Notes: generated by a model not told the origin, from the letters alone. A stretch of 64,000 nt of DNA from Candidatus Bathyarchaeota archaeon (GCA_963707955.1 OY970176.1:672001-736000), one strand, 5' to 3'. Positions 31,186-51,788 are shown, numbered from the stretch's first letter. Numbers and translations are program-made.

Positions 31186-31385
31186 GGTTTCTTCCCCTTT
31201 TTGGCTTGTTTTATGGAAGAAGCGCGTACTTATACCTTGTCTTGCTCGTCGCAGATAGTGAAGAGGACTGTTTCGATTGTTCACTTTAACCTATCTCTCC
31301 GTGGAATGTGGGCTGTTAAGCTTCGCGTGTTTTAAATACGGCGTGTCTATCTGTTCTATCAACTGTGGAAGGAGACAAGGGTTTT

Positions 31386-32426: not shown

Positions 32427-32428
32427 AG

Positions 32429-33612: not shown

Positions 33613-35673
33613 TTGTCCAGCAAGGAGTTCACAAGCTTCGACGTTGCCGCCGTGGTCAGAGAGTTGAAAACCGAAGGGCTATGCTCGATCGTGAGCAACA
33701 TTTACCAGCTGGACGCCAAGACCATAGTCCTCAAACTGCACAAGGCTGACAAACCACCGCTTTGGCTGATCCTGGAGGCCGGAAGACGGATGAACCTGAC
33801 GGTCTACGCGCCAGAGAAGCCTTCGACGCCTCCTGCGTTCTGCATGGCTTTAAGGAAGTACTTTCGGAACGCTCGATTGAGCTCCATCGAACAGTATGAG
33901 TTTGAGAGGGTAGTTGTGTTGTCCTTCAACGCTCAAGACGTTGATTTCCAACTGATCCTGGAGTTCTTCGGCGACGGAAACATCATCCTTGTAAGCGAAA
34001 ATGCCGAGATCCTCCAAGCTCTAGTCTACAAGCGCATGCGAGACAGGAACGTCGTCCGCGGTGAGCCTTTCAAGTTTGCACCTTCAAGCGGGAAGAACCC
34101 GTTCAGAGTGAACTACGGGGAATTCAACTTAAGCCTAAAATCTTTCGGTGATGTTCAAGTCGTCAGGGCACTCGCTCGTTTTCTAAGCATAGGCGGCATT
34201 TATGCAGAGGAGGTTCTAGCTCGGGCTGGTGTTCATAAAGCCAAAGTCTGCAACCTGTTGAGCGATGATGAGGTCAAAACCATCTTTGAAAGCCTTCAGG
34301 AGTTGTTGTCACAGGTTACGAATGGAGCCCTGGAGCCTCGTGTCGTCTTCGACAAGACCGACGTTCTCGTTGATGCTACGCCGCTAAGGCTCAAACGCTA
34401 CGAGAGTGAAACTTTTAGAATCCAGTCTTATGGCACATTCAACGAGGCACTGGATGAGTTCTTCGCCAAACTGTCAGCGCTTGAAAGTGCTGCGCAGGGG
34501 ACGAACGTTGAGGAGTTCAAAGCGGAAGCGGCAAGACTTGAACGCATCGTCGTTGAACAGCAGAAAGTAGTGGTCAGCGCTCGTGCCGAAGCGGAGCGAG
34601 ACAGACGCATCGGTGACTTGATTTATGCACACTTCAGTGAGTTGCAAGCCATAATGGAAAAATTTTTGGGAGACAAGAAGAGCGGCAGGGAATGGAAGAA
34701 CATAGTTTCTGAGGCCCTAAGCGAGAAGCAGGAGGGTGTCAAACCGTGGGTGTTTTTTGAGTCTTTCAACAACGAGGAATTCTCAATGAAAGTCTGTGTG
34801 AACGACTTGTCCTTCAACCTAGACTTGCGAAAGACACTCTTTGAAAGCGCGTCAGAGTTTTATCGGCACAGCAAACGTGCCAAGCAGAAAATGGAAGGCG
34901 CGCAGGTGGCCTTAAATGATTATTTGAGCAGAGTTCAGGAAGCTGAAGCAAAGATGGACGAGGCTCACGCGTTGGAGTTTGTCAAGCCAGCCGAAGCCTT
35001 GGGAGAGCTTGAGAAACGCAGGGTTAAGCGTAAGGAATGGTTTGAAAAGTTCAGGTGGTTCGTGTCATCCGACGGGTTTCTGGTTGTTGCCGGTAAGGAC
35101 GCCGTGACCAACGAGGTCTTGATCAAGAAGTACACTGACAGTGGAGACATCGTTCTCCACGCCGATATTGTCGGTGCGCCGTTTGTCGTGGTCAAGAGGG
35201 AAGAGCAAGAACCAGGAGAAGAATGCTTGCGTGAAGCAGGAGAGTTCGCCGCTGCTTTTTCGAGAGGGTGGCGGGAGGGCTTTGCGAGCGTGGACGTTTA
35301 CTGGGTTAAGCCGGAGCAACTGAGCAAGGGAGGGCCTTCTGGCGAATCCGTGGGCCGCGGTGCGTTCGTTGTTCGTGGCGAGAGAAACTGGATGCGCGGT
35401 GTTCCGCTCAGGATAGCGGTCGGCGTTGCTCTTGACGAGGGAACAGGCGTGGCCAGAATCGGCGGGGGGCCTGTTGAAGCGGTCAAGGCGAAGACAACTG
35501 CACACGTGGTAATCGTGCCTGGAGACTTGAGCGGGAAGGAACTTTTTAAGCGTGTTCTCAGGAGTTTGGCTGAAAAAGTGTCCAAGGAACTGCGTGAAGC
35601 CGTCTTGACCCTGTCAGTTGAGTCGGTTAGAGAGTTTATTCCCTTCGGAAAGGGCACGGTTTTGAAAGACTGA
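33613..35673 (+). CDS. rqcH: Ribosome quality-control factor Rqc2/NEMF (NFACT)
   Basis: F.M.LRK, ERVV, EFFGDGNIIL, coiled coil, WFEKFRWF.SSDG, G.DA..NE, HAD..GAP, G.F.VRG. Confidence 0.93.
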   Translation: MSSKEFTSFDVAAVVRELKTEGLCSIVSNIYQLDAKTIVLKLHKADKPPLWLILEAGRRMNLTVYAPEKPSTPPAFCMALRKYFRNARLSSIEQYEFERVVVLSFNAQDVDFQLILEFFGDGNIILVSENAEILQALVYKRMRDRNVVRGEPFKFAPSSGKNPFRVNYGEFNLSLKSFGDVQVVRALARFLSIGGIYAEEVLARAGVHKAKVCNLLSDDEVKTIFESLQELLSQVTNGALEPRVVFDKTDVLVDATPLRLKRYESETFRIQSYGTFNEALDEFFAKLSALESAAQGTNVEEFKAEAARLERIVVEQQKVVVSARAEAERDRRIGDLIYAHFSELQAIMEKFLGDKKSGREWKNIVSEALSEKQEGVKPWVFFESFNNEEFSMKVCVNDLSFNLDLRKTLFESASEFYRHSKRAKQKMEGAQVALNDYLSRVQEAEAKMDEAHALEFVKPAEALGELEKRRVKRKEWFEKFRWFVSSDGFLVVAGKDAVTNEVLIKKYTDSGDIVLHADIVGAPFVVVKREEQEPGEECLREAGEFAAAFSRGWREGFASVDVYWVKPEQLSKGGPSGESVGRGAFVVRGERNWMRGVPLRIAVGVALDEGTGVARIGGGPVEAVKAKTTAHVVIVPGDLSGKELFKRVLRSLAEKVSKELREAVLTLSVESVREFIPFGKGTVLKD

Positions 35674-35725
35674 ATTGAAGTGCAGAACTTTAGATGTTCT
35701 TTGTTGAATGAGAATGTTTTGAGGT

Positions 35726-37380
<1,655 letters not shown>

Positions 37381-37812
37381 CAATTCAGACCTAACCGATT
37401 AGTTTGTCAGGTCCACATTGCTGTCTCCGCAACTGGAGGCCAACAGTCCTCATTCCATATGGCGACTTTGCGCCGTTGAGGTCGGAGTTGAGCCGCCGCC
37501 GAAAAATTGCGGAGCTAATTGATTGCCAAAAAGACAATGAAGGCATCCAACCAGATATAAACGTTTCTTTCAACAGGGCGCTCCCATTTAATGCTTGGTT
37601 TAACATATTGGAAAAGGCATCAAAGCTTCTAAGTCCATAAGAAAGGCAGTACTGAACCATGACCGCTGAAAGGGAGAAAGTCTTGAAAGACCTTGAGCGC
37701 GCGCTAATAGGCCTAATTCTTGGGCTTGCCGCTATAGTTATTATGATCCGTACGCATCCAAACAAAACTGAAAGCACACGTAAACCCGTGTCCCTCAAGT
37801 TAACGGTGTTCT

Positions 37813-38598
37813 TTAACGCCTATGTGCTCTTGTTTGTTCATGTCCATAATTTTCAAGCAAGTCAAGTAACTCTCTTAAGCCCTTGATAACTCCGTCAGGC
37901 AGGACTTTCTCGTGTGCTTCTGGCAGTTCGTATGAAAGCGACAACGAATCTCGGGGCGACTGCTGTCTCTCGATTAGGACAGCTTTGAGTCCCACCGTTT
38001 TCGCACCTCTGATGTCTATTCCTGGTGTGTCGCCGACGAAAACGGCTCTGTCTGCCTCGATGTCTAGGGTGCTCAATGCTCTTTCATAGATTTCAGGACT
38101 GGGCTTTCGCTTGTTGATGGCGCCCGAAATGACGACAGCATCAAAAAACCCATTCATACCAAACTTCTCCAGCAGTCTTGAAGCGCATTCGGGAATGGAG
38201 AAGTTGGAGACAATCCCGAGCTTGTATTTTTTGTGCAGTCTCTCCAATACATAGAGTACGTCGTCGTCTGGTCGCGCGTACTTCATGAACTCTTCGCAGA
38301 AGGCTCCGGTGGCTCCCACAACAGTGGGGTGTGAAACTCCCAGTCTGTGTCCGAACTTTTCCAGCGTACGTGAAACCCTGATGTTGAAGTGCGGGTCTTC
38401 AAGACTCTCACTTGTTTCCTCGTAAAGCCTATCTCGCACCTCGAAGTAAACTCGAACGAAGTCTTCGAAAGAAATGTCAATTTCGTTATTGACCAAGAAA
38501 TTGTGGAGTCTCTTCAATGATGGCATGTAGAAGGCATCGTCATTTTCAAGCAAGACCAAGGTGTTAAATAGGTCAAAGAGTACCGCCTCCACGCGCAT
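37813..38598 (-). CDS. HAD-family hydrolase
   Basis: FDLFNTL, VSN, KP.PEI, VGD...DI.GA. Confidence 0.9.
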   Translation of the reverse strand: MRVEAVLFDLFNTLVLLENDDAFYMPSLKRLHNFLVNNEIDISFEDFVRVYFEVRDRLYEETSESLEDPHFNIRVSRTLEKFGHRLGVSHPTVVGATGAFCEEFMKYARPDDDVLYVLERLHKKYKLGIVSNFSIPECASRLLEKFGMNGFFDAVVISGAINKRKPSPEIYERALSTLDIEADRAVFVGDTPGIDIRGAKTVGLKAVLIERQQSPRDSLSLSYELPEAHEKVLPDGVIKGLRELLDLLENYGHEQTRAHRR

Positions 38599-39116
38599 TT
38601 TTGCACCCTTTACAGTAGCAGTTCGCGATAAAGATAAAGAGTTGTTGCACCGAGCAAATCAAACTTAATCCAACATCAAGGTGGACAGCGCACGACATTT
38701 CTGCAGGTGAAAACATGCGGCTATTCACGTGCAGCCCTTTCTTCGGCAACAAAAATTGGGCCGTGACTCTTTGATCATGGCGAAGGCAAGTGACATGTCG
38801 AACTGCAAAGGCTTCAGGTGTGATGTGAATCTCGCCTCTGTCTATGTTTTGCGGAACAAACTGCCGTTAAGCTTATATTGTGTATTGCTACATAATATAT
38901 GGGAAACGAGCCATGAAGCCCGTGTCGAAAAACGAAGAAATCCGATGGCAAGTCATGAAGGCTATGCTTGATGAATTTCCAACGTTGAAGGAGAAAACCA
39001 GAAAATATCTTGAAAGACAAGGTTCAAATCAATAAACGTCTTGTTTATTGTTCTGTGCCAGAACGTTATTTCTGGTAACTTTCAAGGAAGCTTTTGGGCA
39101 TTGAACGCGGGCTGAT

Positions 39117-39470
39117 TCACATCAGGTTTTGGTTCTTCTTGAGCAGGTGTTGCGGAGGAATTCTGATCCCATTCTTGCCGTTGTTGTCCTCTTCGGTCTT
39201 GAGAAGTTCGGTTATTTCATGGTAGCGCTGCAGAAAATCCACGCCCTTGTCTGTTGCCCTGTATGTTTCCCTGTCGTTCTGCAAGATTTTCTCCAGCAAA
39301 CTGATTCTCAACATGAAGTTAAGATAATCATTCAGCTGCGTGAAACTCAGGTTTGCCCGGTACATGATCTGAGTCTTCAGGGACCCATCCTTGGCGATTT
39401 CCAAGATTTCGGCCATGATGAAAAGCCTGTCCCTTCTCTTGGCAGACGGATTCGAACCCCAAGGATTCAT
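39117..39470 (-). CDS. Winged-helix protein (HTH_45-like)
   Basis: RRDR..I.AEIL...KTQIMYRANLS...YL, Y..T.KG..FL. Confidence 0.88.
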   Translation of the reverse strand: MNPWGSNPSAKRRDRLFIMAEILEIAKDGSLKTQIMYRANLSFTQLNDYLNFMLRISLLEKILQNDRETYRATDKGVDFLQRYHEITELLKTEEDNNGKNGIRIPPQHLLKKNQNLM

Positions 39471-39656
39471 TTTCTATATCCCTCTTTCAGAACTGTTTTC
39501 TGTAACAGAAGGAAGTGGCGCTTTTCTTAAGCAGTGTTTCGGAGACCAAGCTATTTCAGGAATCGAAATATTCTCTAGAACAAACTTCTAGAAGCCAAAG
39601 AGCCTCTTGCAAAGACCTTATTTCCTTCAGAAGAGAATCTTCAAAATGATGAGAAA

Positions 39657-40155
39657 ATGCTGATAGGACTAATGTCAGACACGCACGATAACCTTCCACA
39701 AGTTGACAAAGCAGTCAGAAGGTTTAACGAAGAAAATGTTGAGCTTGTGCTTCACGCCGGAGACTATGTTGCCGCTTTCGTGATCCCAAGGTTCAAGGAT
39801 CTGAAAGCAAGATTGATCGGCGTCTTCGGCAACAACGATGGTGATCACGAGCTCTTGAAGTTAAGGTTTAAGGAAAACAAACGGCTGGAAATACGCGGAA
39901 ACTTTGCGTACGTAGAAGTTGACGGCTTGAAAATTGCGTTGCTGCATGGAACCGACAGGGGAGCTTTTGGAGGCTTTGATCGAACGCGAGAGTTTTGACG
40001 TTGTGGTTCATGGGCACACGCACCTTAAAGGAGTGCACAAGAAAGGCAGGACGCTGGTCGTGAATCCAGGGGAAGTCTGCGGATATTTGACTGGGAAATC
40101 GACTGTTTCGCTGCTTGACACGGTCAAACGCAGAGCGAAAATAGTTAAACTTTAG
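39657..40155 (+). CDS. YfcE/MJ0936-family metallophosphoesterase, split by a 1-bp insertion near 39957-39961
   Basis: SDTHDN, HAGD, GNND, HG in ORF1; HGHTH and NPGE in ORF2. Confidence 0.85.
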
Positions 40156-40166
40156 TTGGGACTCAC

Positions 40167-41117
40167 TCAGAAGGCATCGAGGCGGCTCAGATAGAATCTG
40201 TCACCGTAGGTCTTCTTGAATGAGGCATCGGAGGTCAGAGGCTTGAACATCATGACTCCCCAGCTCCTGTTTTGAACCATGTAACCGCGGAATCTATAGA
40301 CTTCCAAAAGTCTGGCATTTAGAACTGCCCTGTCATAGACAGATCCTCTTGTTCTGCTCTCCAAGAAGTCTACTAGCTTGTGCATTTGTTCAGCATTTAA
40401 CGCAACAAGCTCTCTAATCCATATGCCCGTCTTGTCTTCCCTGAAGATGACATAACCTTCTTCATCAACTATGCACTGCTTAGGCTTTATTCCTTCAGTC
40501 TTCTTAAGCATCTTGATGTACGCCCTATCCCGAACGACAAAGCCTGTCCTCTCTTTCGAAAATTCGTTGTAGATTGCAAGAATCCTTTCTGGGTCAAAGC
40601 CCACGACATTCTCTTCTGGATAGTGCTTAGCTTTCTTGTCGTGAAAGACTTTGTACACGCTAGGACACTCGATCAGGTCAACGTAACCCAGCTTCTCGTA
40701 AAGAGCATGAGCCACGAGTGAATGGCCCGTGAACAGGAAGGAAAAACGGTACCCCTTATTCCTAAAGTATTCGTGTGCCTTGTTCATCAGAGTTGTGCAG
40801 ACGCCCTTCCGCGCGTAGCCTGGCAACGTCGCGACGCCGTACAATCCACCAACGTGTTCGATACTTCGGTCCACAGTTCGCGTTGCCAGATCCATCACGC
40901 CTACGTGTCCAATTATCCGTCCATATTCAACTGCGCAGAAGCTGACTGGGCCGTTCTTTAATCTTGGGTCGATCTTGACGAGATCGTCAGACTGGCTTTG
41001 ATTGAAAACCCATTTAAAAGCATGGTCTAGCAGCGGCAATAGCCCATCCTTCGATTCTAAGTCTCTGTACGGGATGATCCTCATTCTTGACTGCCCCTTT
41101 TGCGCTTTCTCACTCAA
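40167..41117 (-). CDS. GNAT acetyltransferase (Eis-like N-terminal domain)
   Basis: GVATLPGYARKG...LM, A..LYEKLGY. Confidence 0.8.
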   Translation of the reverse strand: MSEKAQKGQSRMRIIPYRDLESKDGLLPLLDHAFKWVFNQSQSDDLVKIDPRLKNGPVSFCAVEYGRIIGHVGVMDLATRTVDRSIEHVGGLYGVATLPGYARKGVCTTLMNKAHEYFRNKGYRFSFLFTGHSLVAHALYEKLGYVDLIECPSVYKVFHDKKAKHYPEENVVGFDPERILAIYNEFSKERTGFVVRDRAYIKMLKKTEGIKPKQCIVDEEGYVIFREDKTGIWIRELVALNAEQMHKLVDFLESRTRGSVYDRAVLNARLLEVYRFRGYMVQNRSWGVMMFKPLTSDASFKKTYGDRFYLSRLDAF

Positions 41118-41176
41118 ACGTGTGATAAAAATCTTGTTTTCAGGCGTATGCTCTGGTTGTTCAACGGGGCTTTTGC

Positions 41177-42106
41177 TCAGTTCTTGTTGTAGGGCTGTCT
41201 TTTCTGGTTGGCGAGCTTGAAAAGTTCTGCCAGTTGCTCGTCGTTCGCGCCCTTTCTCAGAGGTGTCAAGATGTCCACAAGGTTGTCATTTTTCATCAAA
41301 CAGGGCTTGAGTTTTCCGTCACTCGTTACTCGAAGACGGGTGCAGTGCAGGCAGAATTCAGTGTTCTCTATTGGGTGCACAACCTCAACTCTTGTGCCCG
41401 GTAAGTGGTAAACGCGTCGGTTATGCATATACGGTCTGCTTTCAACTTTCACCGCATTTTCCTTCAACACTGTTTCATACGCGTCCAAGGACTTGTGATG
41501 CATCGAATAAAATTCGCTGCTCATGTTTATCGGCTCAAGCTCGATCAACTGCAGAATCGCGCCAGTTCTTTCAGCAAACCTGATCATCTCTGGCACAGAA
41601 GCATCATTTGCCCCCTTAAGAATGAGCATGTTAAGCTTCACTGGACACAATCCAGCGTTGACGGCGGCTCTTACGCCTGCTAGCGCATGCTGCACTCGAC
41701 CGCCGGTCAGTTTGTGATAGACATCCGCATCCAGCGTGGGGAGGCTTACGTTCACACGGTTCAAGCCGCTAGAATGCAATTCCTCAGCAACTGAAGCAAG
41801 CAGGGTTCCGTTCGAGGTCATGGAAAGATCCGTCAAGCCAGGCGTGGACGCGATTCCTCGAACAATCTCCACAATGTCCTTGCGCATCAGAGGTTCCCCT
41901 CCTGTCAGCTTGACCTTGGAAATGCCCAACGTGAGAGCAACTCTCACGATGCGGACGATCTCGTTACTCGTCATTTCTCCATGGCAGAGTTCCGCAGGAC
42001 TCTCGTCGCCCTCACCGTGACAGTATGAGCAGTTCAAGTCACATCTTTTGGTGACTGCAATCCGCAGGTTGAGCAGCGGTCGCCCACACCCGTCTTTCAA
42101 AACCAT
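41177..42106 (-). CDS. moaA: GTP 3',8-cyclase (radical SAM)
   Basis: LRIAVT.RCDLNCSYC, TGGEP, K.N, FCxxCxRLR.T.DG.LKPCL. Confidence 0.95.
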   Translation of the reverse strand: MVLKDGCGRPLLNLRIAVTKRCDLNCSYCHGEGDESPAELCHGEMTSNEIVRIVRVALTLGISKVKLTGGEPLMRKDIVEIVRGIASTPGLTDLSMTSNGTLLASVAEELHSSGLNRVNVSLPTLDADVYHKLTGGRVQHALAGVRAAVNAGLCPVKLNMLILKGANDASVPEMIRFAERTGAILQLIELEPINMSSEFYSMHHKSLDAYETVLKENAVKVESRPYMHNRRVYHLPGTRVEVVHPIENTEFCLHCTRLRVTSDGKLKPCLMKNDNLVDILTPLRKGANDEQLAELFKLANQKRQPYNKN

Positions 42107-42323
42107 CGTTATTCCCGTGCGTGCCTAACGATGACAGAGATTAGCCATCATATAAAACTTGCTTGACGGGCTCGCGTCTTTTCAACATGAATCGACAAGC
42201 GCGCGCTATTAAAAACCATTTGCCCACACCCCTAAGAAACAAGAAATGGGATAATGAGAATGAACGAACGCGACTTGCGTTCCAATCGTGAAGTAGCATT
42301 TGTCGTCGTGCCATATGGTCCTT

Positions 42324-42428
42324 CTATAGGAGGAGAACTAAGATGACGACTTCGATAATGACTGCTATCATGAGCAGTGTATTCGTTCGCTCTATTCTTT
42401 TTACGGTATTTTCTGAGGGGTTTTCCAC
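42324..42428 (-). CDS. 34-aa tail-anchored microprotein (not in ORF track)
   Basis: AAGGAG RBS + GTG; MENPSENTVKRIERTNTLLMIAVIIEVVILVLLL*. Confidence 0.55.
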   Translation of the reverse strand: MENPSENTVKRIERTNTLLMIAVIIEVVILVLLL

Positions 42429-42483
42429 TTTTTCTCCTTCTTGACTGTTGAGCGTTTTCTGTTTTGGACCATGCTTGTCAGGG

Positions 42484-42741
42484 TTATGCGAAAAGGATGA
42501 CGAGTATGGCTACGGCTAAGCCTATTGCGGCGTAACTTAACAATTCAGATCTTCGGAGGGCTTTTTCTAGGCGCGTTGATAGGTCGCTGTTGTCGGTTCG
42601 GGTTGGCCATGTCGTTGAATTTGTCGACGTGGATTGAAATGGCGCAGGACTTGTCTGTGCGGAGTTTAAGGGTGGTCCACAGTAGCTGCAGGCGATGGCG
42701 CCTTCAGGCACTGTAGCTCCACATTTTGGACATGCGGGCAT
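42484..42741 (-). CDS. Zinc-ribbon protein with C-terminal membrane anchor
   Basis: CPKCG...CSYCG, Ser/Thr/Pro linker, terminal TM helix. Confidence 0.75.
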   Translation of the reverse strand: MPACPKCGATVPEGAIACSYCGPPLNSAQTSPAPFQSTSTNSTTWPTRTDNSDLSTRLEKALRRSELLSYAAIGLAVAILVILFA

Positions 42742-42914
42742 TTTTAGTCAACTTCCTGTTTTAACCTAAGTTTGACAAGTCAGTCCTTGTTCAGTGGTAT
42801 ATAAACATTAGCGCGCGCGTTTTATTTCAGAGAGAGTGCGCGCTTACCATGCTGATTTGTCAGTAGATTTTCACCCTAGAGTAAGTGAGACTTTTTATAG
42901 CGCGCGCTGCCTCA

Positions 42915-43022
42915 CGTCTGCAGAGAACAGAAAAAGAGGGGTTGCGCGGGAGACATCGCCACTGAAGCATGCTAAAGCCTTAGGTGGGTACTTTTCCGTG
43001 TAGGCAGGGTAATTTCATTTTC
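42915..43022. repeat. ~110-bp non-coding repeat, copy 1
   Basis: Aligns with 45639-45747 in direct orientation; the first ~45 bp are nearly identical. Confidence 0.85.
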
Positions 43023-43227
43023 TCCTATTCTTCCATGATTTTTTGCCAGCAGAGTGCCCTCTCTTTAATCTCTAGTAGATATACATCGTCGTGCGTGACG
43101 CGCGCGTCATGAGACACCTAGAGAACTTGATGAGGCTTTGGATAAAGCTGATGCCTATATCTTGGGAGCTCCATTGTACTGTTTGGAGGTAAATGGTTTA
43201 ACCAGGACTGAAGGAACGGGGATAAAC

Positions 43228-43521
43228 ATGATATCGTCTAAGGCGAAAAATCGAATGAAACGTGAGCTAAGCTTGGAGAAGCCAACAATATGGGTTGGTA
43301 AGGAGGGAGCGTCGCCGCAGACGGTGAATGAGATTTCTAGGCAGTTGGAGAAAAGGAAAATAGTGAAAGTTCAAATATTGAAAAACGCGCTTAAGGATGA
43401 GAGCGCCAAAGACATCGCGTCAAAAACAGCTCAGCAAACGGCATCCACCCTAATCGATGTTCGAGGACACACTTTCATACTGCATAAGCCTCGCAAAAAG
43501 AGAAGTGAAAAGCCTCTGTGA
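43228..43521 (+). CDS. yhbY: YhbY/CRM-domain RNA-binding protein
   Basis: KPTIWVGKEG, EI..QL, VKV.IL, RG.TFIL. Confidence 0.88.
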   Translation: MISSKAKNRMKRELSLEKPTIWVGKEGASPQTVNEISRQLEKRKIVKVQILKNALKDESAKDIASKTAQQTASTLIDVRGHTFILHKPRKKRSEKPL

Positions 43522-43787
43522 GAGGACCGTTTAGAGGTTTTGAAAGGGATGAGATTGGAATAATCTTGTTGAGGAAGGTTCAAAAACACCCATTTCCTTC
43601 ATGCCTTTAACCTTGCTTTCATGAACCTACCTCTGTCAAGAGATCCTAAAATGGCTGACGCATCCATTGACAAAGACGCGCGCATGGCCACTTCAAAATG
43701 ACTGCTTGATCCCTATGAGAGTTGTGTCAATTGCTGTTTGTAAGCGAAGAGCTCATTCAAGAATGAGATAACGCACAACGGTTGAGA

Positions 43788-43874
43788 CTACTTCTTTAAG
43801 CGTTTCTCCTTGTGCTTCTTTCTTCTTTCTTCCCTTTCCTTTTTTGTCATCGGTTTCTTCTCAGCACTTCCCAT
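43788..43874 (-). CDS. Possible 28-aa highly basic peptide
   Basis: MGSAEKKPMTKKEREERRKKHKEKRLKK*; no clear RBS. Confidence 0.4.
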   Translation of the reverse strand: MGSAEKKPMTKKEREERRKKHKEKRLKK

Positions 43875-44004
43875 GCTTAACAAAATCGCCATTTTGAATA
43901 GTCAAGGTTGAAAGCTAAATCTTGTGTGCACAGAAGCGCGCGCCAGTGTTAATGTTCTAAAAGTAATGTTGCTTCTGCTCTTCCTCATACTATATTACAG
44001 AAAA

Positions 44005-44613
44005 TCAGTCTGTAACATCGTCTTCATGAAACTCGTCTTTGAAGAATGACCCCTGCTCATCTTGTTCAATGCTTTCAATCTCATCAGCGTTAGCTTCCAT
44101 GAGTCTCTTCATCTTGCGGTCCTCAATTCGTTTCCGTACTTCCTTATGGGTCAAGTATCGAGACTGTGAATTGGTGCCTGAGACACCGTCGAACCATTCG
44201 CCGCCCAAGTCCAGTTTTTGTTCAGAAATCATGACTCGCGAGTCAGCGTTCTCTCGACTAGTTTTTTCATGATAATCGTCAATGTTCTTTGTGCCAACAA
44301 GATTGCCTTTGTCATCGTAGACTTCAATTGAACGAAGGCTTTGTTTTGGGTGTATTATGTGAAATGACGTTTCAAAACGGCAGTTTGGGCAATAGAACCG
44401 TATGTTGTTGAATTTCACGTCATGCCTAAGTCTGAAACTTTTTCCTGCGCATTGTGGGCAGCCATCATGTGCACATTTAGCTAGTGCGAGATTGTTTACA
44501 CTTGCCCATCTTAGGTATTGAGCTTCAAGTGAAGAATCATGCTCCATATCAGCGAATTCTGTCCAGCCATGTTTCCGTGGTCTGCCTCGATTTCTCGAAG
44601 TAATTATTGTCAT
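44005..44613 (-). CDS. Hypothetical zinc-finger protein with AT-hook-like motif and acidic tail
   Basis: RGRPRKH, CAHDGCPQC, YCPNC, D/E-rich C-terminus. Confidence 0.65.
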   Translation of the reverse strand: MTIITSRNRGRPRKHGWTEFADMEHDSSLEAQYLRWASVNNLALAKCAHDGCPQCAGKSFRLRHDVKFNNIRFYCPNCRFETSFHIIHPKQSLRSIEVYDDKGNLVGTKNIDDYHEKTSRENADSRVMISEQKLDLGGEWFDGVSGTNSQSRYLTHKEVRKRIEDRKMKRLMEANADEIESIEQDEQGSFFKDEFHEDDVTD

Positions 44614-44996
44614 CAACCCAACCGAGTGCCACCAATACCGAAGTCTGCTTGTCCAAGAGAGCATCAGTTAGCACTCTGGCCAAATCGACAATGGGGATGC
44701 TAAGAATATTAACTTTAGTGCAGATTGCGCGCGCATCTACGACGCTTTGATACTAGCAGCCAACTACGGAAAACAATGGACATAAAACTCAGGGTTCAAA
44801 CGTGGGCTTTGACCTAAGACAATCCACTAGGCTTTCATGATTTGGGCAATCTTCGATCTTTTTTGGGATAATAATATATCACGTGTGCGGATGAGGGACA
44901 AGAAATCCGAGAAACAAACAATATAAGGCACATATGAGGCGTTTTCACAGATGTGCGTATAGTTCATTTATCTCTTGCATAAGGGGATGGGGTTAG

Positions 44997-45551
44997 CTGA
45001 CAATAATTGTTGACGATGCAGGCATAGGCGACCTACTTTTTGGCGTGGTCATAGGTGCCTTTCGCTGCGAGACTCAGGAATTTAGATACGATATCGTGGA
45101 TGTTAAATACTTTAGATATCCGCGATTCCGATCAAAAGAGTATCTGAAGCAGGCTTCGAAAGTCGTGTTTCAACTGCTGAGTAAACTCCAAATCAAGAAA
45201 GACGAACAAATTCAAATCTGCAGAGGATACATCTTCGACGAAGCGGTAGATCGTTTAAGAGAGATATATGGCGGCAGTCAAGTCGACAGAATCACAGTCA
45301 CTGGGGAGCCGCAGAGGCTGACGGAGATAGCATACCTTGACGAAATCAGAAACTTGGGTTATGAGCCTGTGAAAGAGAGAGACGAAGAAAAGGCAAAGAG
45401 CTTCTTCCATATGATGAACTGGCTGAAGAAAAATCCAGAAAAACTAATTTATGCAAAGACTGGCTGGCCACGCCTGCAGAGATACAGTTTATTCAGATCT
45501 TACTGTCAATGTCAAAGGCGATCAACAGAAGATAGAGAAATTTGTTCTTGA
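44997..45551 (+). CDS. Hypothetical protein with RNase HII-like N-terminal motif; probable CTG start
   Basis: MTIIVDDAGIGDLLFGVVIGA resembles the RNase HII DEAG.G...G..V strand-loop; purine-rich RBS upstream. Confidence 0.55.
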   Translation: MTIIVDDAGIGDLLFGVVIGAFRCETQEFRYDIVDVKYFRYPRFRSKEYLKQASKVVFQLLSKLQIKKDEQIQICRGYIFDEAVDRLREIYGGSQVDRITVTGEPQRLTEIAYLDEIRNLGYEPVKERDEEKAKSFFHMMNWLKKNPEKLIYAKTGWPRLQRYSLFRSYCQCQRRSTEDREICS

Positions 45552-45638
45552 GTCTACAAAGTGCTCATTGGTCTTATGCAATTAGTAAGAAAATTGCCGA
45601 AGGCGTCTCTTTCAATGCGCACTTGTTTAATGCGCGCG

Positions 45639-45747
45639 CGTCTGCAGAGAACAGAAAAAGAGGGGGTTGCGCGGGAGACATCGGCACTTTACCATTCTAA
45701 AGCCTTAGGTAGGTAGTTTTTCCGTTTAGGTGGGTACTTTTCATTTT
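45639..45747. repeat. ~110-bp non-coding repeat, copy 2
   Basis: Aligns with 42915-43022. Confidence 0.85.
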
Positions 45748-45832
45748 TTCTTTCTAAATAGCTTGCCACGCGCGCTTCATCAATAGCGCAAACGCCAGAC
45801 AGACCCTCGACCACACAAGAGCGTGCATGCAT

Positions 45833-45893
45833 GTTCCTAAATCAGCGTGGGCTAACACATAACAAAAATCACCTCATGAGCGAATTTAGGAAC
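45833..45893. mobile_element. MITE-like element with 14-bp imperfect terminal inverted repeats
   Basis: GTTCCTAAATCAGC ... GCGAATTTAGGAAC; the same motif recurs at 47322/47449 and 62978. Confidence 0.45.
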
Positions 45894-46092
45894 GGTAATA
45901 CGCACCAGATGCACACGTAAGTCTCCTACGATATCCAAAAGAGTGTTCTTAAATGGTGCTGCTTGCGTTGGAATCTATTAATGATGCGTGAATTCATTAT
46001 GCCTAACATCGAGCGTGCTTTATGCTGGAATCACAAAAGCATTGATCTGCTTGAGCTCCCACGAAAAGGGTTTTGTCCAAGCAAGAAATGGT

Positions 46093-47253
46093 TCATGTAG
46101 GTCCGAAAGATGTTTGTGAACGTTGCGGTGCACCGTTCTCATTTTTCCTTCTTCGTCTTCGTCTGGCGTTGAGAAATAGAGCTAATCCCACTGCAAGGAA
46201 GACTATTATCATAGAGGTCACGATTGCTGGGATTACGTAAGGGGCCCAAGCGTATGGAATTTCCACCTGTCCAAACAGGGGCAACTCCCAGACGACCCAC
46301 ATGTTGGAGTAAGCATCCACGAAGTAGCCGTAGATGTTTTGAATCGAAGAGTCAAAAAGAACGAAACTCGCATCGTCACCATGATACAATTCTACTACGG
46401 TGGAGTTTGTCAAGCGAACATTAGAGTGCCCAAAGATATGGATGCCAGAGACAGTTGAGTTCGATATTTTCACACTCGAGAAATCGGGGCCGTCTATCTC
46501 AAGATATTCGAGTTTGGAAGCGTTAATGTCAATTGTACAATTCGACTGGTTGCTAGACGAGTTTACCTCCTGGTGAATAAAGGCACCGTCCAAGATTGAG
46601 TTTTGAACTTCGGCCTGCGATTGGTCCTCCATAATCAACCCACTCTTGGGGTACTCTCCATAATAGGACACCGGATAGAAGGTGCTCATAACGACATTTC
46701 TCATCCAGACTCTGGAATTGTTGCGACATATTATGTAATCTCCTAGCCCATCAGAGTACGAGATTTTGGAGTCCGTGATGTTTACGACGGCTTCGTCGCC
46801 AACGATGATGCAATGTTCGTCTGTGGGGTATGAAGCATTTGCGCTGAGAATCAATTCGCTGTTCACGATGGTTAGTTTAGCCTGATTCTGAAGTATCAAA
46901 TTATTTGTTCTCAAGTAAGGCTCGGCGGGTGTCTCGTTTGGATTCCAGTTTGAAATGAATGTGGCGTTGCTGATTGTCACTTCCGCATTGTCCTTTATGG
47001 TGAGTTTGCCGGCTTGGTTGAATTGGCAATCCTGTATTAGCAGAGTGTCATTATGTTCGACGACGATGTCTCCAAAGTGGCTAGTTGCATTTTGTTGCTG
47101 AACGTCAAGGGCCAAGGCATTCTTCACAACGAGGCTGGCAAACAACTGTGGATGAACAGCACTTCCAAAGGCCACTCCAAGAAGGGCAAAAAGAATCAGA
47201 GTCGCATTCAAAACAGACAAAGCTGGAGTGTGACAGGAGGCCTTCCTGTTCAA
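46093..47253 (-). CDS. Membrane-anchored surface protein with predicted parallel beta-helix
   Basis: Signal peptide, repeated (A/S).(V/L).I.(N/D)S.I strands, C-terminal TM + RRRRRRK. Confidence 0.75.
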   Translation of the reverse strand: MNRKASCHTPALSVLNATLILFALLGVAFGSAVHPQLFASLVVKNALALDVQQQNATSHFGDIVVEHNDTLLIQDCQFNQAGKLTIKDNAEVTISNATFISNWNPNETPAEPYLRTNNLILQNQAKLTIVNSELILSANASYPTDEHCIIVGDEAVVNITDSKISYSDGLGDYIICRNNSRVWMRNVVMSTFYPVSYYGEYPKSGLIMEDQSQAEVQNSILDGAFIHQEVNSSSNQSNCTIDINASKLEYLEIDGPDFSSVKISNSTVSGIHIFGHSNVRLTNSTVVELYHGDDASFVLFDSSIQNIYGYFVDAYSNMWVVWELPLFGQVEIPYAWAPYVIPAIVTSMIIVFLAVGLALFLNARRRRRRKNENGAPQRSQTSFGPT

Positions 47254-47321
47254 CCTTATCCCATATGCCTAGGAAGTTGGGACTTAGAGTTAAAGCTTGT
47301 CATATGCGTAGCGCGCTAGCG

Positions 47322-47462
47322 TGTTCCTAGATTGGCTTCTTCAAGTGCGGCCTGATTGATCCGTGCTTATGAACGATGCTTCACGCGTCTGGAGTCACAG
47401 GGCCATCATGTATCTGACAGAGCCAACGGCGGAAGCCAACATAGCAAACGAATTTAGGAACA
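47322..47462. mobile_element. MITE-like element, same inverted-repeat family as 45833
   Basis: TGTTCCTAGATTGG ... CGAATTTAGGAACA. Confidence 0.45.
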
Positions 47463-47476
47463 GCCATGCGCCTAAG

Positions 47477-47665
47477 AAGGGGAGACGGTCGAGCACATCG
47501 AAAAGTTACTACCCTTGCCAGATCCTTTGCGAAGCGCTCTGCACGCGCTCGGCTTCAAGCCCATACAAATCCAGTAGGGCCTTCACCAACGCCTACGTGC
47601 AGTACTAGCACCCTAGGGGGGAGGGTAAAATAGACGAGGCCAAAACGCGAACACAGGGATGTAGC
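47477..47665 (+). mobile_element. Degenerate IS-like remnant (transposase-like C-terminus plus right end), copy 1
   Basis: GETVEHIEKLLPLPDPLRSALHALGFKPIQIQ*, then ~90 bp ending GGGATGTAGC; homologous to 57061-57270 (inverted). Confidence 0.55.
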
Positions 47666-48370
47666 CCTCGCTGAAGTGGCCGTGGGACCTTCGGGTTCAG
47701 GAGCCTTTTCGACTTGCTTGTCCTTCTCATCCGCGGGTTTCTTGCCTGTGACCTCTGGAAGGGCAAATTCGACGACGATCAAGATCATTATGATGACAAG
47801 TATCACGATTATTCCGGTGGAGTTACGCATGAAAAGGGCAACGTGTCCGACCCATGGAATCCTCATTACGACCTTACCGATAACGTCTTGTACGGGAGTG
47901 TAACCAGCTACCGGCGAAGAGGGCGGTCCAGGCCCATCATTGGCGTCACCCTGAGTTATGAACGCCACGACCGTCCCGTTGCTTCCATACACATAGCTTA
48001 CGGCTCTGTGCACGATCAGTTCGTCGCTTCCACTGATACGAAACACGAGGATGTCGCCTGAGCGCCCGCTCGCATTGTATGGTGCTGCGTAAACGTCTTG
48101 TGGATTCACTCCCTCAACGATGATCAGGTCTCCAGTGTGAAGCGTCGGTCCAAACGGGTTGGACCACCCATCATCAACAACGCCTTTAGGAAGGCTCATG
48201 CTTCCAGAAGCCACAGCGAGCATCGGATACTGCGTGTCCAAAAAGAGACGCGAGCCGTACCAAAACCCGAAGACAACTGAGACTATGAAGAAAATCATCA
48301 CGACGGTCTGGAAAGAATCGCCTCTCCACAAACGCCCAGGTCTTGACGCTGACAATGATCGACCTTCCAT
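47555..48370 (-). CDS. Signal peptidase I (S26B/Sec11 type); C-terminus runs into the IS-like remnant
   Basis: VASGSM, GDLII, IVHR, TQGDAN, V.GKV...IPWVG. Confidence 0.9.
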   Translation of the reverse strand: MEGRSLSASRPGRLWRGDSFQTVVMIFFIVSVVFGFWYGSRLFLDTQYPMLAVASGSMSLPKGVVDDGWSNPFGPTLHTGDLIIVEGVNPQDVYAAPYNASGRSGDILVFRISGSDELIVHRAVSYVYGSNGTVVAFITQGDANDGPGPPSSPVAGYTPVQDVIGKVVMRIPWVGHVALFMRNSTGIIVILVIIMILIVVEFALPEVTGKKPADEKDKQVEKAPEPEGPTATSARATSLCSRFGLVYFTLPPRVLVLHVGVGEGPTGFVWA

Positions 48371-48481
48371 GGCTGAAGTTGTCTGTTGAACAAGAGCAGT
48401 GGAGCTTTAAAACTTAACGCTTTCGAAAAATGAAAAAGAGGGGAGAGGAGGATAGATGAAAGAGCCGTCAGAGTTTCGCGT

Positions 48482-48652
48482 CTAAATCTTTTTCTTGTTT
48501 AGAACTTCCCTGAACACTTTGTGATCCTTTGGACATTCGAAGAGTCCGATCTCCAGCTGAATCCTTTTTCCTGACTTGTCCGGGCGCCCAGCCATCGTCC
48601 ATGTTTTCTTTGGTTTTGAAACTTCAGTTCCGCATTTTGGACATTTAGCCAT
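48482..48652 (-). CDS. cren7: Cren7-like chromatin protein (56 aa; not in ORF track)
   Basis: MAKCPKCGTEVSKPKKTWTMAGRPDKSGKRIQLEIGLFECPKDHKVFREVLNKKKI has P.KTW, IGLF..P and FR; GGAGG RBS; pyrimidine terminator. Confidence 0.8.
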   Translation of the reverse strand: MAKCPKCGTEVSKPKKTWTMAGRPDKSGKRIQLEIGLFECPKDHKVFREVLNKKKI

Positions 48653-48888
48653 TTAATTTCCTCCGATATGTTTCCGTATCCATGGTTTCTCATGATGGTA
48701 GATAAATAACTTTCCATTGATCTTTGTCCAAGAAGCGCCTGTTCAACGACCATGCGCAAGTGCCTGCTTCCGCAAACTCCCACGTCAAGGTAAGTGAAGA
48801 CGCTGGATGAAAGCTGCCAAAACAGGCCGTGCGACTCAAACGTTTTATTCTTCCTCATTCTAGAATGTAGGCCTAAGGTTGGAAAAGC

Positions 48889-50307
48889 ATGGAACAGGAC
48901 ATCATAGATTACGCCTTAGAGTATGCACAGAGCAAGAAGGTCGAGTACGCCGAAGTTAGAAGCCAGAGCCAAGCATTGGACAGGATGGTGCTGAGAGACG
49001 GAATCCTAGAGGCATACGCTAAGGCTGTGGACAGCGGGTTCTGCGTGCGGATCATGGCAAACGGCGGGATCGGCTTCGCATCGACGAACAAGTGGTCGAA
49101 GAGCGAGACGAGAGACGTTGTGGACCTGGCGTTCAAATACGCGGGGGCTGCAAATCGAAAAGACAAGCTGTTTTTTGCCAAGGAGAAGGCGGTTAAGACA
49201 AGCTGGACTGCTGACCAAAAAAAGAAGATCGAGAACGTTCCAACTGAAGAAAGAGTGGCTACTCTCACTGAGGTCAACAGGGCTTTGGCGTCCTGCGGTG
49301 TCAAGATCGCGGCTGCAACGTCGCAGTGTTCGATAAACCTGATAACCAAGTATTTCGTAAACTCGGAGGGATCGCGCATATCATCCGTCGTTCCGAAGAT
49401 CGGGGCGTATTTCTTCATCGCAGTTGCAGAGAGTGGAAAGACTGAGCAGACTTCAGAACAGTTCGGCTACAGTGGCGGATGGGAAGCTTTTGATAAGTGG
49501 AAGATCGAAGAAAAAATGATTCACGATGCAAAAGTGCTCAGAGCCGTCATAACAAAGGCAAAAGTCCTGAAACCTGAAAAGATGGACCTGGTCTGTGGCC
49601 CCGAAGTTGCAGGAATAGCAGCGCATGAATCCTGCGGCCACCCCATGGAAGCTGACAGAATCCTGGGCCGAGAAATGAGCCAAGCTGGACGATCCTTCAT
49701 CTACGAGGGGGGCCCATACTGGATCGGCACAAGAATCGGCAGTGACGCTGTCACGGTCGTCGATGACCCTACGGTCGAGAACAGTTACGGGTACTATCTG
49801 TATGATGATGAAGGGGTCAAGGCTAGGCGCAGGTTTCTGTACAAGAAAGGCGTCATAAACGAGTTCTTGCACAACAGAGAATCAGCCGCGAAGATGGACA
49901 CGCGAAGCAACGGTTCTTCAAGATCCGAAAATTACGACCGAGAGGCCATAGTGCGCATGGCAAACACGTTCGTGCTTCCTGGAGAACTGACCGACGAGGA
50001 GCTGATTGAAGACGTCAAGTATGGCGTTTGCATGAAATCCTTCACTGAATGGAACATCGATGACAAGCGCTTCAACCAACGCTACGTTGGCAGAGAAGCA
50101 TACATGATAGAAAACGGTGAATTGACCCATCCTGTTGCGAGACCCGTTGTTGAAACCACTACGCAGAAGTTCTGGACCGCTGTCGACGGGGTATCCAAGA
50201 AAGTTGAGTTTGACTCGGCCACATGTGGCAAGGGCGACCCTGAGCAAGGGGCACAAGTGTACACAGGTGGCCCGTGGCTTAGACTTAGGGCGGTGTTCAT
50301 GAAATGA
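48889..50307 (+). CDS. tldD: TldD metalloprotease subunit
   Basis: HESCGHPMEADR, DDP, YDDEG, RMANT, CGKG.P.Q, GGP. Confidence 0.92.
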   Translation: MEQDIIDYALEYAQSKKVEYAEVRSQSQALDRMVLRDGILEAYAKAVDSGFCVRIMANGGIGFASTNKWSKSETRDVVDLAFKYAGAANRKDKLFFAKEKAVKTSWTADQKKKIENVPTEERVATLTEVNRALASCGVKIAAATSQCSINLITKYFVNSEGSRISSVVPKIGAYFFIAVAESGKTEQTSEQFGYSGGWEAFDKWKIEEKMIHDAKVLRAVITKAKVLKPEKMDLVCGPEVAGIAAHESCGHPMEADRILGREMSQAGRSFIYEGGPYWIGTRIGSDAVTVVDDPTVENSYGYYLYDDEGVKARRRFLYKKGVINEFLHNRESAAKMDTRSNGSSRSENYDREAIVRMANTFVLPGELTDEELIEDVKYGVCMKSFTEWNIDDKRFNQRYVGREAYMIENGELTHPVARPVVETTTQKFWTAVDGVSKKVEFDSATCGKGDPEQGAQVYTGGPWLRLRAVFMK

Positions 50308-51629
50308 TCGACGCAATGAGTAAAACGGAAGAGATCATCAAGAAAGCGAAAGTGCTAGGCGCTGACGAAGTTATCGCCAGTACAGTTTTTGGCAAGTACC
50401 GTCAGGTCCGCTTCAGCAACAACCAAATAGACATAACCGTTGCTTGGAACGATTATGCGACTGATGTGATCCTGGCCTGGAAGAAACGCGTGGTTGCAAC
50501 ACAGATACACAACTTCCGCGAATTCGATGCCAGCCTCAGGCAACTGATGAAGCTTGTGAAGGTTTCTAAAGAAAATCCGACCTTCGGAGGCTTCGCAAAA
50601 GGCACTTTTCGCTATGCGAAGAGCAGGGCTGACAAGAAGATTGAAAACCTAGAGAACCTGACGGATCACGTTTCTGCAGCGATAGAAGCCGCCAAGAAAG
50701 AAGCTGGATCAAAGGTCGAAAGCGGTGGCATACTCCTTGCCAAATTTGAGGACGTTTACTTCGCTTCTTCTGAAGGACCGGCCGGCGTGGACACGAGATC
50801 AGCGATCGAGCTTTCTATCAGGGCTTTTTCGGAGAGAGAAGCCTCGGGGCATGGTGTTGAATGCAGCTCAACGCTGAGAGAGTTTGAACCTTCTAGGGCA
50901 GGAGCAAAGGCTGGCGAGATTGCCAAGATGGCTAAGAACCCAAGTTTAGGCGATGAGGGCGTTTATGATGTTGTCTTTGACCCGTTGATTTTCGGTTCTC
51001 TGCTCGGAGTTTGGGCCGGGATGGCTTCGGCCTACTCGATTATGACGCGGACATCCATATTCGTTGACAAGCTCGGCAAAGATGTGGCGCCTGAAATCGT
51101 GACGTTGAAGGACAACCCTGCTCCCTACTCACTGTCCAACAGGGTCTTCGATGACGAAGGTGTTCCGACAAGAGAGAACATTTTCATAGACCACGGCTCC
51201 TTCAAGACCTATCTTCATAATGCGTCGACAGCGAAGATCTTCAAGACCGAGACAACTGGCAACGCGGGCTTGATTGCTCCAACTCCATGGAATGCAGAAA
51301 TGGAACCTGGAGACGCGAGCAGAGAAGAGCTCTTTAAAGAAATGAAGAGGGGGCTTTACCTGACTAACACGTGGTACACGCGCTTCCAAAACTCTGCGAA
51401 GGGTGATTTCTCAACTATTCCCAGGGACGGCGTCTTCCTCGTAGAAAAGGGAGAGATTAAACGGTCGCTTAAAGACCTGCGAATAAGCGATAACGCATTA
51501 GCCATGCTTGGCAACATTGCGGGTGTTTCAAGAGAGAGGCAGCACGTCCACTGGTGGGAGGAAGCAGACCCACCGTCGCTAAGCCCCTACGTCCTGATGA
51601 AAAACGTGCACATAACCAAGTCTAAGTAA
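50304..51629 (+). CDS. tldE: TldE/PmbA subunit
   Basis: FDDEG, TTGNAG, GDFS; lacks HExxxH; ATGA-coupled to tldD. Confidence 0.9.
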   Translation: MIDAMSKTEEIIKKAKVLGADEVIASTVFGKYRQVRFSNNQIDITVAWNDYATDVILAWKKRVVATQIHNFREFDASLRQLMKLVKVSKENPTFGGFAKGTFRYAKSRADKKIENLENLTDHVSAAIEAAKKEAGSKVESGGILLAKFEDVYFASSEGPAGVDTRSAIELSIRAFSEREASGHGVECSSTLREFEPSRAGAKAGEIAKMAKNPSLGDEGVYDVVFDPLIFGSLLGVWAGMASAYSIMTRTSIFVDKLGKDVAPEIVTLKDNPAPYSLSNRVFDDEGVPTRENIFIDHGSFKTYLHNASTAKIFKTETTGNAGLIAPTPWNAEMEPGDASREELFKEMKRGLYLTNTWYTRFQNSAKGDFSTIPRDGVFLVEKGEIKRSLKDLRISDNALAMLGNIAGVSRERQHVHWWEEADPPSLSPYVLMKNVHITKSK

Positions 51630-51788
51630 GCACTGACAGTTTTCCTATTCCATCTTGTCCAGAATGCTACGTCAGTTAGCACATGCTTGCAACATCAATC
51701 TTCTTGAATTCTTCCTGATTATGCTGTCCAAAATCCTTTTACCTGTGACTTCTTGCTTATTCCCTCTTGCGTTGGAGTTCAACTAGTC

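Follow-up and report, generated by a model that had tools for sequence, protein, structure and literature searches.

Short alternating C/G tracts at the joints of one-gene units in a Candidatus Bathyarchaeota genome, and an IS5-family transposon with the same sequence at its tips

Short runs of alternating C and G mark the joints of an accessory island, made up of one-gene units, in the genome of a Candidatus Bathyarchaeota archaeon (GCA_963707955.1), which is a single contig (OY970176.1) of 2,346,764 bp (2.35 Mb) with 47.9% G+C. The island occupies positions 42199–47316 of a 64,000-nt stretch of this contig (672001–736000), hereafter called the window; all positions refer to the whole window unless they are marked as genome positions. 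Both the association of these tracts with junctions and the movement of tract-bounded units are directly observed, within the genome as well as between it and its relatives. New here is an IS5-family transposon that, together with its MITEs (miniature inverted-repeat transposable elements), carries (GC)3–4 at both tips. The explanation that we prefer, with a probability of roughly 45%, is that the tracts derive from this cut-and-paste transposon and its MITEs and then act as joints; within it, we infer both that elements gave rise to scars and how the joints are made.

Movement of tract-bounded units

The yhbY unit of the island (43099–43683) is 100% identical over 585 bp to a second locus with unrelated flanks (genome 1421017–1421601), and the identical stretch runs exactly from the first base of its left tract to the last base of its right tract. 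Short-read unitigs cover the unit at double depth, with branch points in their graph at 43099 and 43683. The unit is also tract-bounded, among different neighbours, in the relatives G001 (contig C28) and G007 (contig C4). The second locus is the ancestral one: homology to it runs in G001 through the right tract into an AAA-ATPase gene (identity by eye) and stops at the left tract. In the more distant relative G003, yhbY has no left tract and a degenerate right one.

This unit is one example of a wider pattern, since for 12 of the 420 tract-bounded segments of the genome there is a further copy whose alignment extends from tract to tract, the 150-nt flanks being unalignable; these copies occur in both orientations, and one of the 12 has a MITE terminal inverted repeat (TIR). 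Among all repeat ends within the genome, 228/1292 lie no more than 2 nt from a tract, and after removal of those near MITE-type inverted repeats the figure is 25/608 (4.1% against 0.32% at random). Fifty-three within-genome repeat alignments pass straight through a tract.

Between genomes, we compared one contig of 360 kb of the closest relative, G001 (approximately 2400 kb), with the whole genome, together with selected regions of other relatives. Shared blocks, which are about 90–96% identical, make up 60% of the 360 kb, and the other 40% is relative-specific. The 92 tracts in this contig are distributed as 65 in relative-specific DNA, 19 in shared DNA and eight at a boundary, and tract density is five times higher in strain-specific than in conserved DNA. 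Of the 90 homology boundaries, eight are no further than 2 nt from a tract, where 0.22 would be expected (about 36-fold), and the remaining 82 lie away from tracts. The idea, put forward in the original prediction, that pieces of DNA are captured or shuffled as tract-bounded units is borne out in part: units have been gained, copied, lost, replaced and inverted at tracts, and the 82 boundaries located elsewhere count against the integron-like reading. Among 16 clean indels, a perfect tract is the short allele in four, with long alleles of 803, 284, 2184 and 532 nt, and the other 12 have direct repeats, tRNA-type attachment repeats or nothing at their joints. Of another kind are an insertion of 3.5 kb (genome 2012439–2015975) and one of 9 kb (G001 C1:107467–116535), which stand beside tRNA-like 3′ ends with a repeated attachment sequence and resemble classical integrase-type integrations, unrelated to the tracts.

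Tracts can also be old, as those in shared blocks are mostly orthologous: of 16 compared between this genome (G000) and G001, seven are identical, four are shortened but still at least 6 nt long, four are point-mutated and one is absent.

The island and its history

Eleven alternating C/G runs of at least 6 nt (6–10 nt long) are found in the island.

Tracts 1 to 6: 42199–42206, 42811–42819, 42838–42843, 42900–42907, 43099–43106, 43677–43683
Tracts 7 to 11: 43936–43943, 44727–44734, 45632–45640, 45769–45775, 47311–47316

None of the eleven interrupts a listed open reading frame (ORF), just as the sequence had first been read; gene calls here are crude ORFs of at least 100 aa. In the 3.6 kb from 42199 to 45775 there are nine tracts of at least 7 nt, against 0.98 predicted from the genome-wide density (Poisson P ~9e-7), and per intergenic kb the island holds 3.7 tracts compared with 1.07 in the whole genome. 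The one-gene pieces formerly described between the tracts (zinc ribbon, yhbY, AT-hook-like Cys-rich protein and beta-helix protein) are present as described, and the genes lie on both strands in mixed orientation:

22126–22133: tract GCGCGCGC, the far breakpoint of a 20-kb inversion; homology to the sequences L001–L003 ends exactly here
42199–42206: tract T0 GCGCGCGC, 93 nt upstream of moaA; near inversion breakpoint and left edge of the island
42207–42810, minus strand: unit U1, gene for a zinc-ribbon membrane protein (42484–42741; Pfam Zn_Ribbon_1, E 2.8e-6) and a small ORF
42811–42907: three tracts with short spacers
42908–43098: non-coding repeat copy R1
43099–43683, plus strand: yhbY unit including both bounding tracts, with the yhbY ORF at about 43229–43521 (CRS1_YhbY, E 7e-18)
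43684–43935, minus strand: unit B, ORF for a 28-aa basic peptide (43788–43874), read from the sequence
43936–43943: tract T5, conserved in position in both G001 and G007
43944–44726, minus strand: unit A, Cys-rich gene with an AT-hook-like motif (44005–44613/44664)
44727–44734: tract T6, present in G001 and decayed through point changes in G007
44735–45631, plus strand: unit H, 184-aa protein (44997–45551) of a hypothetical family found in Bathyarchaeota only
45632–45775: tract T7, repeat copy R2 (45641–45768) and tract T8
45822–47473, minus strand: composite-transposon-like block of mini-MITE, beta-helix gene and MITE
47474–47665: one copy of a ~190-bp repeat that the genome holds 23 times; outside the tract system

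The two repeat copies are 86.7% identical (42915–43024 against 45639–45750), and the right part of R1 is homologous to the region upstream of a TATA-binding protein (TBP) paralogue, in G001 (C29) and in G007 (C4), adjoining TBP in both. Stretches paralogous to unit B are found in two other islands (genome 868734 and 1415531), and the unit is kept in G001 and G007. In the block, the mini-MITE (45822–45905) has decayed tips, the gene for the beta-helix surface protein runs from 46093 to 47253, and the MITE (47311–47473) has tract 47311–47316 as its left tip; the TIR cores of both small elements match the MITE family of the genome described below.

Relatives differ from this genome in gene order across the island, and several indel and inversion boundaries lie on tracts, so that on this score the idea of shuffling withstands the comparison of strains. 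The units follow one another as R1, yhbY, B, A, H and R2 here; in G001 the series is R, a zinc-ribbon ORF, B, A and H, followed by a copy of yhbY. A single slot between R and B is filled by yhbY in this genome, by a zinc-ribbon unit of about 400 nt in G001, and by a 36-nt remnant of the latter between two tracts in G007. The block at 45822–47473 is absent from G001, in which 45823 is joined to 47472 across 4 nt, at a site that reads as a single degenerate tract. To the left, homology to L001–L003, to G001 (C21) and to G007 (C6) stops at 42199, and no DNA match to unit U1 was found among the 12 relatives searched, which leaves 42201–42900 uncovered.

The larger rearrangement is the 20-kb inversion. 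The region upstream of moaA is joined to the block ending at 22126 in both G001 and G007, and both also join 22781–36265 to the R-B-A units; as these joins are common to the two relatives, the inversion is derived and specific to this genome. Its two joints now hold the tracts at 22126–22133 and 42199–42206, and the ancestral spacer has been lost. Tracts have also appeared in the place of deleted DNA. In G007, GCGCGCGC replaces 38 nt upstream of gene A that are present here and in G001. A stretch of 803 nt (genome 2018221–2019025) is replaced in G001 by a 10-nt tract, while G007 keeps both of its ends and has lost the middle 517 nt, with a degenerate tract instead; since G007 retains those ends, presence of the stretch is ancestral, and CG filler is found at two independent deletions. 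The long alleles of the 38-, 517- and 803-nt deletions contain no element and no flanking tracts.

The arrangement was originally called integron-like, a comparison that holds for one of four defining integron features and fails for three of them (integrase, attC site and orientation). Shared with integrons are one-gene units between short repeated sites, strain-variable content and the occurrence of units at more than one locus, and whole units are indeed gained and lost between strains, as in the slot replacement and the permutation of units among G000, G001 and G007. The attC sites of integrons, on the other hand, are structured imperfect palindromes of 55–140 bp with conserved inner and outer repeats, unlike tracts of 6–10 bp, and their cassettes are read one way behind a common promoter, whereas here the orientation is mixed, no integrase is adjacent and the sites are spread over the whole genome. 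It could be argued that some dedicated recombinase, with its gene elsewhere, crosses over at the tract and so excises, inserts and inverts cassettes. Tract-to-tract copies in both orientations, a slot with differing contents and an inversion between two palindromic sites would all follow from such an enzyme; the genome has nine tyrosine recombinases, two of which are paralogous (genome 847513–847941 and 853708–854148) and lie inside a tract-dense island at 847–873 kb. None of the nine Phage_integrase matches in the genome falls in the window, however, the nearest being some 59 kb away from the island at genome 655264, and no serine recombinase was found in the genome. With no recombinase in or near the island and no common promoter layout, with a conserved site of just 8–10 bp that lacks arm sequences, with occupied alleles that are often free of tracts on one or both sides (the 803- and 532-nt segments), and with tracts born anew alongside deletions, we regard a dedicated recombinase as quite improbable.

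Tracts in the genome and in relatives

The genome contains 1151 alternating C/G runs of at least 6 nt, 641 of them of at least 7 nt. Counts for lengths of 6 to 11 nt are 510, 186, 267, 130, 56 and 2, the distribution peaking at 8 and breaking off sharply after 10. The 8-mer GCGCGCGC occurs 464 times, against 25–28 expected from base or dinucleotide content, an excess of about 17-fold. Although crude ORFs cover 80% of the genome, they hold 35/267 of the 8-mers, 22/130 of the 9-mers and 11/56 of the 10-mers, so that 80–87% of the runs of 8–10 nt are outside ORFs. The canonical form is TA-(GC)4-TA: 231 8-mers start with G versus 36 with C, with an outer flank of A in 71% and of TA in 32%. Tract ends that start with C have no preference for A or TA, as would be expected if odd run lengths are chance extensions. 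Among 455 tracts, the only conserved flank positions are A at −1 and T at +1.

These figures also bear on the trivial explanation by chance or by an assembly artefact such as a linker between concatenated contigs, for which one can cite that the genome is a single metagenome contig with an estimated contamination of 5.8%. Orthologous tracts occur in independent assemblies of relatives, and unitigs from four short-read runs, among them possibly the source sample, span tracts and contain the tract joints of the island; these two results refute it, and the avoidance of ORFs and the 17-fold excess count against it as well, which makes it hardly credible. Neither circles nor deletions with their joint at a tract appeared in the same unitigs, from four public runs, over 41000–49000, a result that is uninformative because rare variants are dropped from unitigs.

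Tracts are clustered, 42% of them being located in 5-kb stretches that hold at least six. The search for other tract-dense islands suggested with the original prediction yielded at least eight further 5-kb stretches with 9–14 tracts, and the island is consequently an ordinary case of a recurrent architecture and no special locus. Within tract-dense islands we also noted a multi-copy segment of about 3 kb (genome 870300–873700, 1415700–1418000, 1340800–1342300 and 1663300–1664000), and the islands that hold its copies share mosaic pieces in differing order. The copy at genome 870–873 kb was considered as an insertion sequence (IS) and rejected, for it carries Alba, a GT4 glycosyltransferase, TBP and OB-fold paralogues (translations read by eye).

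In eight genomes of the same genus the count of GCGCGCGC ranges from 29 to 434. In a wider sample of 151 genomes of the order, the 10-mer AGCGCGCGCT has at least 10 copies in nine (eight genera, four families), in which it is present in 12–121 copies compared with 0–6 for the reversed control, and the 12-mer, with at least four copies in seven of the 151, gives the same picture. Scattering of tract-rich genomes over four families is what would be expected for a mobile agent.

This distribution must be set against the possibility that the intergenic TA-(GC)4-TA is a functional or fragile cis-element, kept as a protein site, as a boundary of transcription units or as a Z-DNA-prone element that relieves supercoiling, and that breaks arise from its non-B structure. 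Such a role would agree with the strongly intergenic placement of the tracts, which convergent, divergent and tandem spacers all carry at 0.6–1.0 per kb, with the palindromic motif and its preferred flanks, and with the 11 of 16 tracts in conserved blocks of G000 and G001 that are still at least 6 nt long. Genome-wide, however, no fixed or preferred distance to gene starts or ends was found, and the fivefold higher density in strain-specific DNA counts against such a role. That 142/151 genomes of the order have fewer than 10 copies of the 10-mer would be odd for a core regulatory signal, and a cis-element leaves the new tracts in place of deleted DNA unexplained. We therefore judge this possibility to be unlikely.

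An IS5-family transposon and MITEs with the same tips

The genome harbours a MITE family of about 205 bp with GCGCGC at both ends, followed by six bases and then the core GTTCCTAAATT, the flank usually being A or TA. The inventory comprises 40 inverted pairs (85–324 bp) and 82+94 TIR ends, and 15 aligned copies begin with GCGCGC. The TIR GCGCGC-ATGCNT-GTTCCTAAATT is common to these MITEs and to the elements of G003 (C204) and G140, and a second subfamily has the TIR GCGCGC(GC)-CAGCTT-GTTGC. Parent elements are 1.0–1.2 kb long and encode an IS5-family transposase with DUF772 and DDE_Tnp_1 domains. Three decayed transposase copies are present in this genome, all located outside the window, one of them frameshifted at genome 1671432–1672550 (DUF772, E 2e-15; DDE_Tnp_1, E 3e-19), and G003 has intact transposase ORFs of 331 and 328 aa that are 48% identical, represent the two subfamilies and are both flanked by (GC)3–4 tips. 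Transposon copies in G140, G052, G018 and G044 have the same tips even though those genomes contain zero copies of the 12-mer. An IS630/Tc1-type transposase (PF13358) was considered as the source and discarded, there being no match in the genome.

Some TIR-bounded elements carry passenger genes, namely a cupin gene (genome 524434–525305) and genes for a MEDS protein and a zinc-ribbon ORF (genome 1558996–1560758). Four pairs of alleles with and without a TIR element were found, all unpolarised; the empty allele is a perfect 9-nt tract in two, reads as a single near-tract (GCGCC) in one and is degenerate in one. At the target site, A or TA flanks both sides without a co-varying direct repeat, and a 4-bp duplication inside a tract would be indistinguishable from the tips of the element. 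The transposase occurs in 4/7 genomes that are tract-rich by the 12-mer versus 13/144 others (Fisher P 0.003), and in 4/9 versus 13/142 by the 10-mer (hand-computed P ~0.01), related genomes not being independent in either comparison.

The nearest known system is, in our view, an IS5/MITE system with solo scars and composite-transposon-like blocks. With the IS5 elements and their MITEs, prokaryotic relatives of PIF/Harbinger-Tourist, our elements share DUF772 with DDE_Tnp_1, TIRs, dozens of non-autonomous copies of 85–324 bp, passenger-carrying TIR elements, and a gene between two MITEs, the whole block being absent from a relative. They differ in their perfect palindromic (GC)3–4 tips, in solo tracts that outnumber elements by about 10:1, in the lack of a clear target duplication, in tract-to-tract units without TIRs and in tracts that appear with deletions. 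A term search of a 2026 survey of archaeal IS elements (PMC13343696) gave no match for Bathyarchaeia, Harbinger or footprints.

A second likeness is to repetitive extragenic palindromic (REP) sequences and the bacterial interspersed mosaic elements (BIMEs) that they form, which are also abundant, short, intergenic palindromes into which an IS family may insert (here, ends of 6+6 nt compared with empty sites of 8 nt). REPs are 20–40 bp long, form stem-loops and are tied to RAYT transposases, whereas the present tracts are 8–10 bp, too short to fold, and concentrated in strain-specific DNA.

Origin of the tracts

If the tracts derive from the transposon, the sequence of events could be as follows. 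The inverted repeats start with (GC)3–4 beside A or TA, and loss of an element would leave a single tract. As the tips are palindromic, the two ends of the element are also direct repeats of each other and can collapse onto each other or rejoin; by slippage, annealing or rejoining, the element would thus disappear and one tract with its A or TA flanks would stay behind, 8-mers coming from one subfamily and 6-mers from the other. Hundreds of identical GC-rich 8-mers could then provide microhomology for end joining or for template switching during replication, and when breaks at or near tracts are rejoined, segments might be deleted (with one tract left), copied from tract to tract, replaced or inverted. 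The genome has a complete end-joining operon (genome 957179–960231) that encodes the LigD primase-polymerase domain (PolDom), Ku and an ATP-dependent ligase fused to a 3′-phosphoesterase (PE), and this operon may support the end-joining step; Ku is found in 23/151 sampled genomes of the order. We know of no IS family that leaves tract scars of this kind, and full-text literature searches returned no such IS scars, no self-healing transposon with palindromic tips and no end joining that stamps its joints.

Several observations weigh against this origin. Two tract-rich relatives, G008 (254 copies of GCGCGCGC) and G004 (128), have zero exact TIR patterns and no match to the transposase query, five of the nine genomes richest in the 10-mer are without transposase, and 13 transposase-bearing genomes have at most three copies of the 12-mer. 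Across the 151 genomes, the transposase is thus neither necessary nor sufficient for tract richness. No intact transposase is present here, yet the 100% identical yhbY copy and the inversion peculiar to this genome are recent events. Neither remnants of the inner TIR beside solo tracts nor a shared subterminal motif in tract-to-tract units were found when sought. Simple excision does not explain the births of tracts that replace 38, 517 and 803 nt, for which several steps are needed, and the presence of TA on one side of a tract is uncorrelated with that on the other, both having it in 19/231 compared with about 10% expected under independence. Finally, the data are fitted equally well by a transposon that inserts into tracts already present and duplicates 4 bp (ends of 6+6 nt, empty site of 8 nt), in which case the tracts need another source.

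Such a source could be repair itself: host end joining might add self-complementary GC tails, for example by the LigD primase-polymerase, that anneal and leave about (GC)4 at each joint. Deletions, captured fragments and inversions would all be covered, and the IS5-like element would only target or mimic the palindromes. In one step, this would explain the tracts that replace 38, 517 and 803 nt without any visible element, those at both joints of the inversion with its lost ancestral spacer, and those on both sides of captured units. It would also agree with tract-rich genomes that have no transposon, with sharply bounded run lengths (mode 8, minor classes of 6 and 10, only two runs of 11) and with the LigD-PolDom, Ku and ligase+PE of this genome. 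Ku is present in 6/9 genomes rich in the 10-mer versus 17/142 (hand-computed hypergeometric P ~4e-4, related genomes not being independent), but is neither necessary nor sufficient, as it is absent from three rich genomes, and in genus g8 it occurs in 8/12 genomes, of which genus only one genome is tract-rich. We are also aware of no enzyme that adds alternating GC at breaks, and 12/16 indel joints between the two closest genomes are free of tracts. That transposon tips carry the tract even in tract-poor genomes is likewise unexplained by repair, unless the element is strictly site-specific. Repair filler is a possibility that we place on the unlikely side.

A broader formulation is that the (GC)n tail serves as an adaptor: ends would gain or retain such a tail, all ends would be compatible, and each joint would be stamped TA-(GC)4-TA. 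We offer this as a speculation with rather long odds. If true, the hundreds of identical stamps would allow one-gene units to be cut out, duplicated, turned round and inserted again at any place, the process would have the IS5-like element as its source or as its parasite, and the whole would correspond, in nature, to genome scrambling by symmetric sites. In that engineered system, loxPsym-based synthetic chromosome rearrangement and modification by loxP-mediated evolution (SCRaMbLE), symmetric intergenic sites similarly let one-gene units be deleted, inverted or duplicated regardless of orientation. Z-DNA-prone fragile sites are also comparable, in that alternating CG of at least 8 bp is found at rearrangement joints, and the tracts have the sequence that defines such sites. 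The tracts differ from both in that no recombinase or structure-specific nuclease was identified and in that they arise anew at deletion joints.

Should the tracts be the joints of a flexible genome, they would constitute a readable record of gains, losses and rearrangements in an uncultured and globally abundant group of archaea. They would point to a simple way of modular reshuffling, which could be a transposon whose palindromic tips heal the donor site, or end joining that stamps its joints. For annotation, tract-dense stretches can be used to flag accessory DNA, and pairs of tracts to flag candidate mobile units.

Other features of the units and the window

The protein of unit H had been described as RNase H-like, a claim that we do not uphold: 44997–45551 has no Pfam match, the single-sequence AlphaFold model is poor (mean predicted local distance difference test score of 43), and its Atlas clusters are Bathyarchaeota hypotheticals only, on which grounds a nuclease function was dropped. 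The protein has a single paralogue, 28% identical, at genome 238804–239271, and a broken relative of its gene is situated upstream of the second yhbY copy. Zinc-ribbon paralogues of 56–65 aa with a weak Cren7-like match are found near both yhbY loci (genome 1419608–1419805 and window 48482–48652). Unit A encodes a protein that matches Cys_rich_KTR below the cut-off (E 2e-4) and AT_hook at E 0.35, and the beta-helix surface protein matches Beta_helix at E 1.9e-5, slightly short of the Pfam cut-off. An ORF previously called signal peptidase has no Pfam match at E≤0.01. No Rfam match was obtained in 40000–50000, and a tRNA scan of 36000–52000 found none.

The stretch at 47474–47665, formerly taken for an IS remnant, turned out to be the 23-copy repeat (blastn), of which only two copies have a tract within 25 nt of an end; it has no Rfam match. 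This repeat is also found at 57061–57248 and in many copies in G001 and G007, and in the unitigs it has about eight times the depth of neighbouring sequence.

Elsewhere in the window, 37577–37825 is a 250-nt insertion relative to G007 that encodes a small membrane-protein ORF, the frame of which crosses the tract at 37697–37704, so that this tract is coding. At 12363–13376, a one-gene insertion of 1 kb relative to G001 and G007 has a duplicated promoter-like stretch on its flanks, and a tract at 13282 stands just beyond the end of its gene, 90 nt inside the insertion and off its edge.

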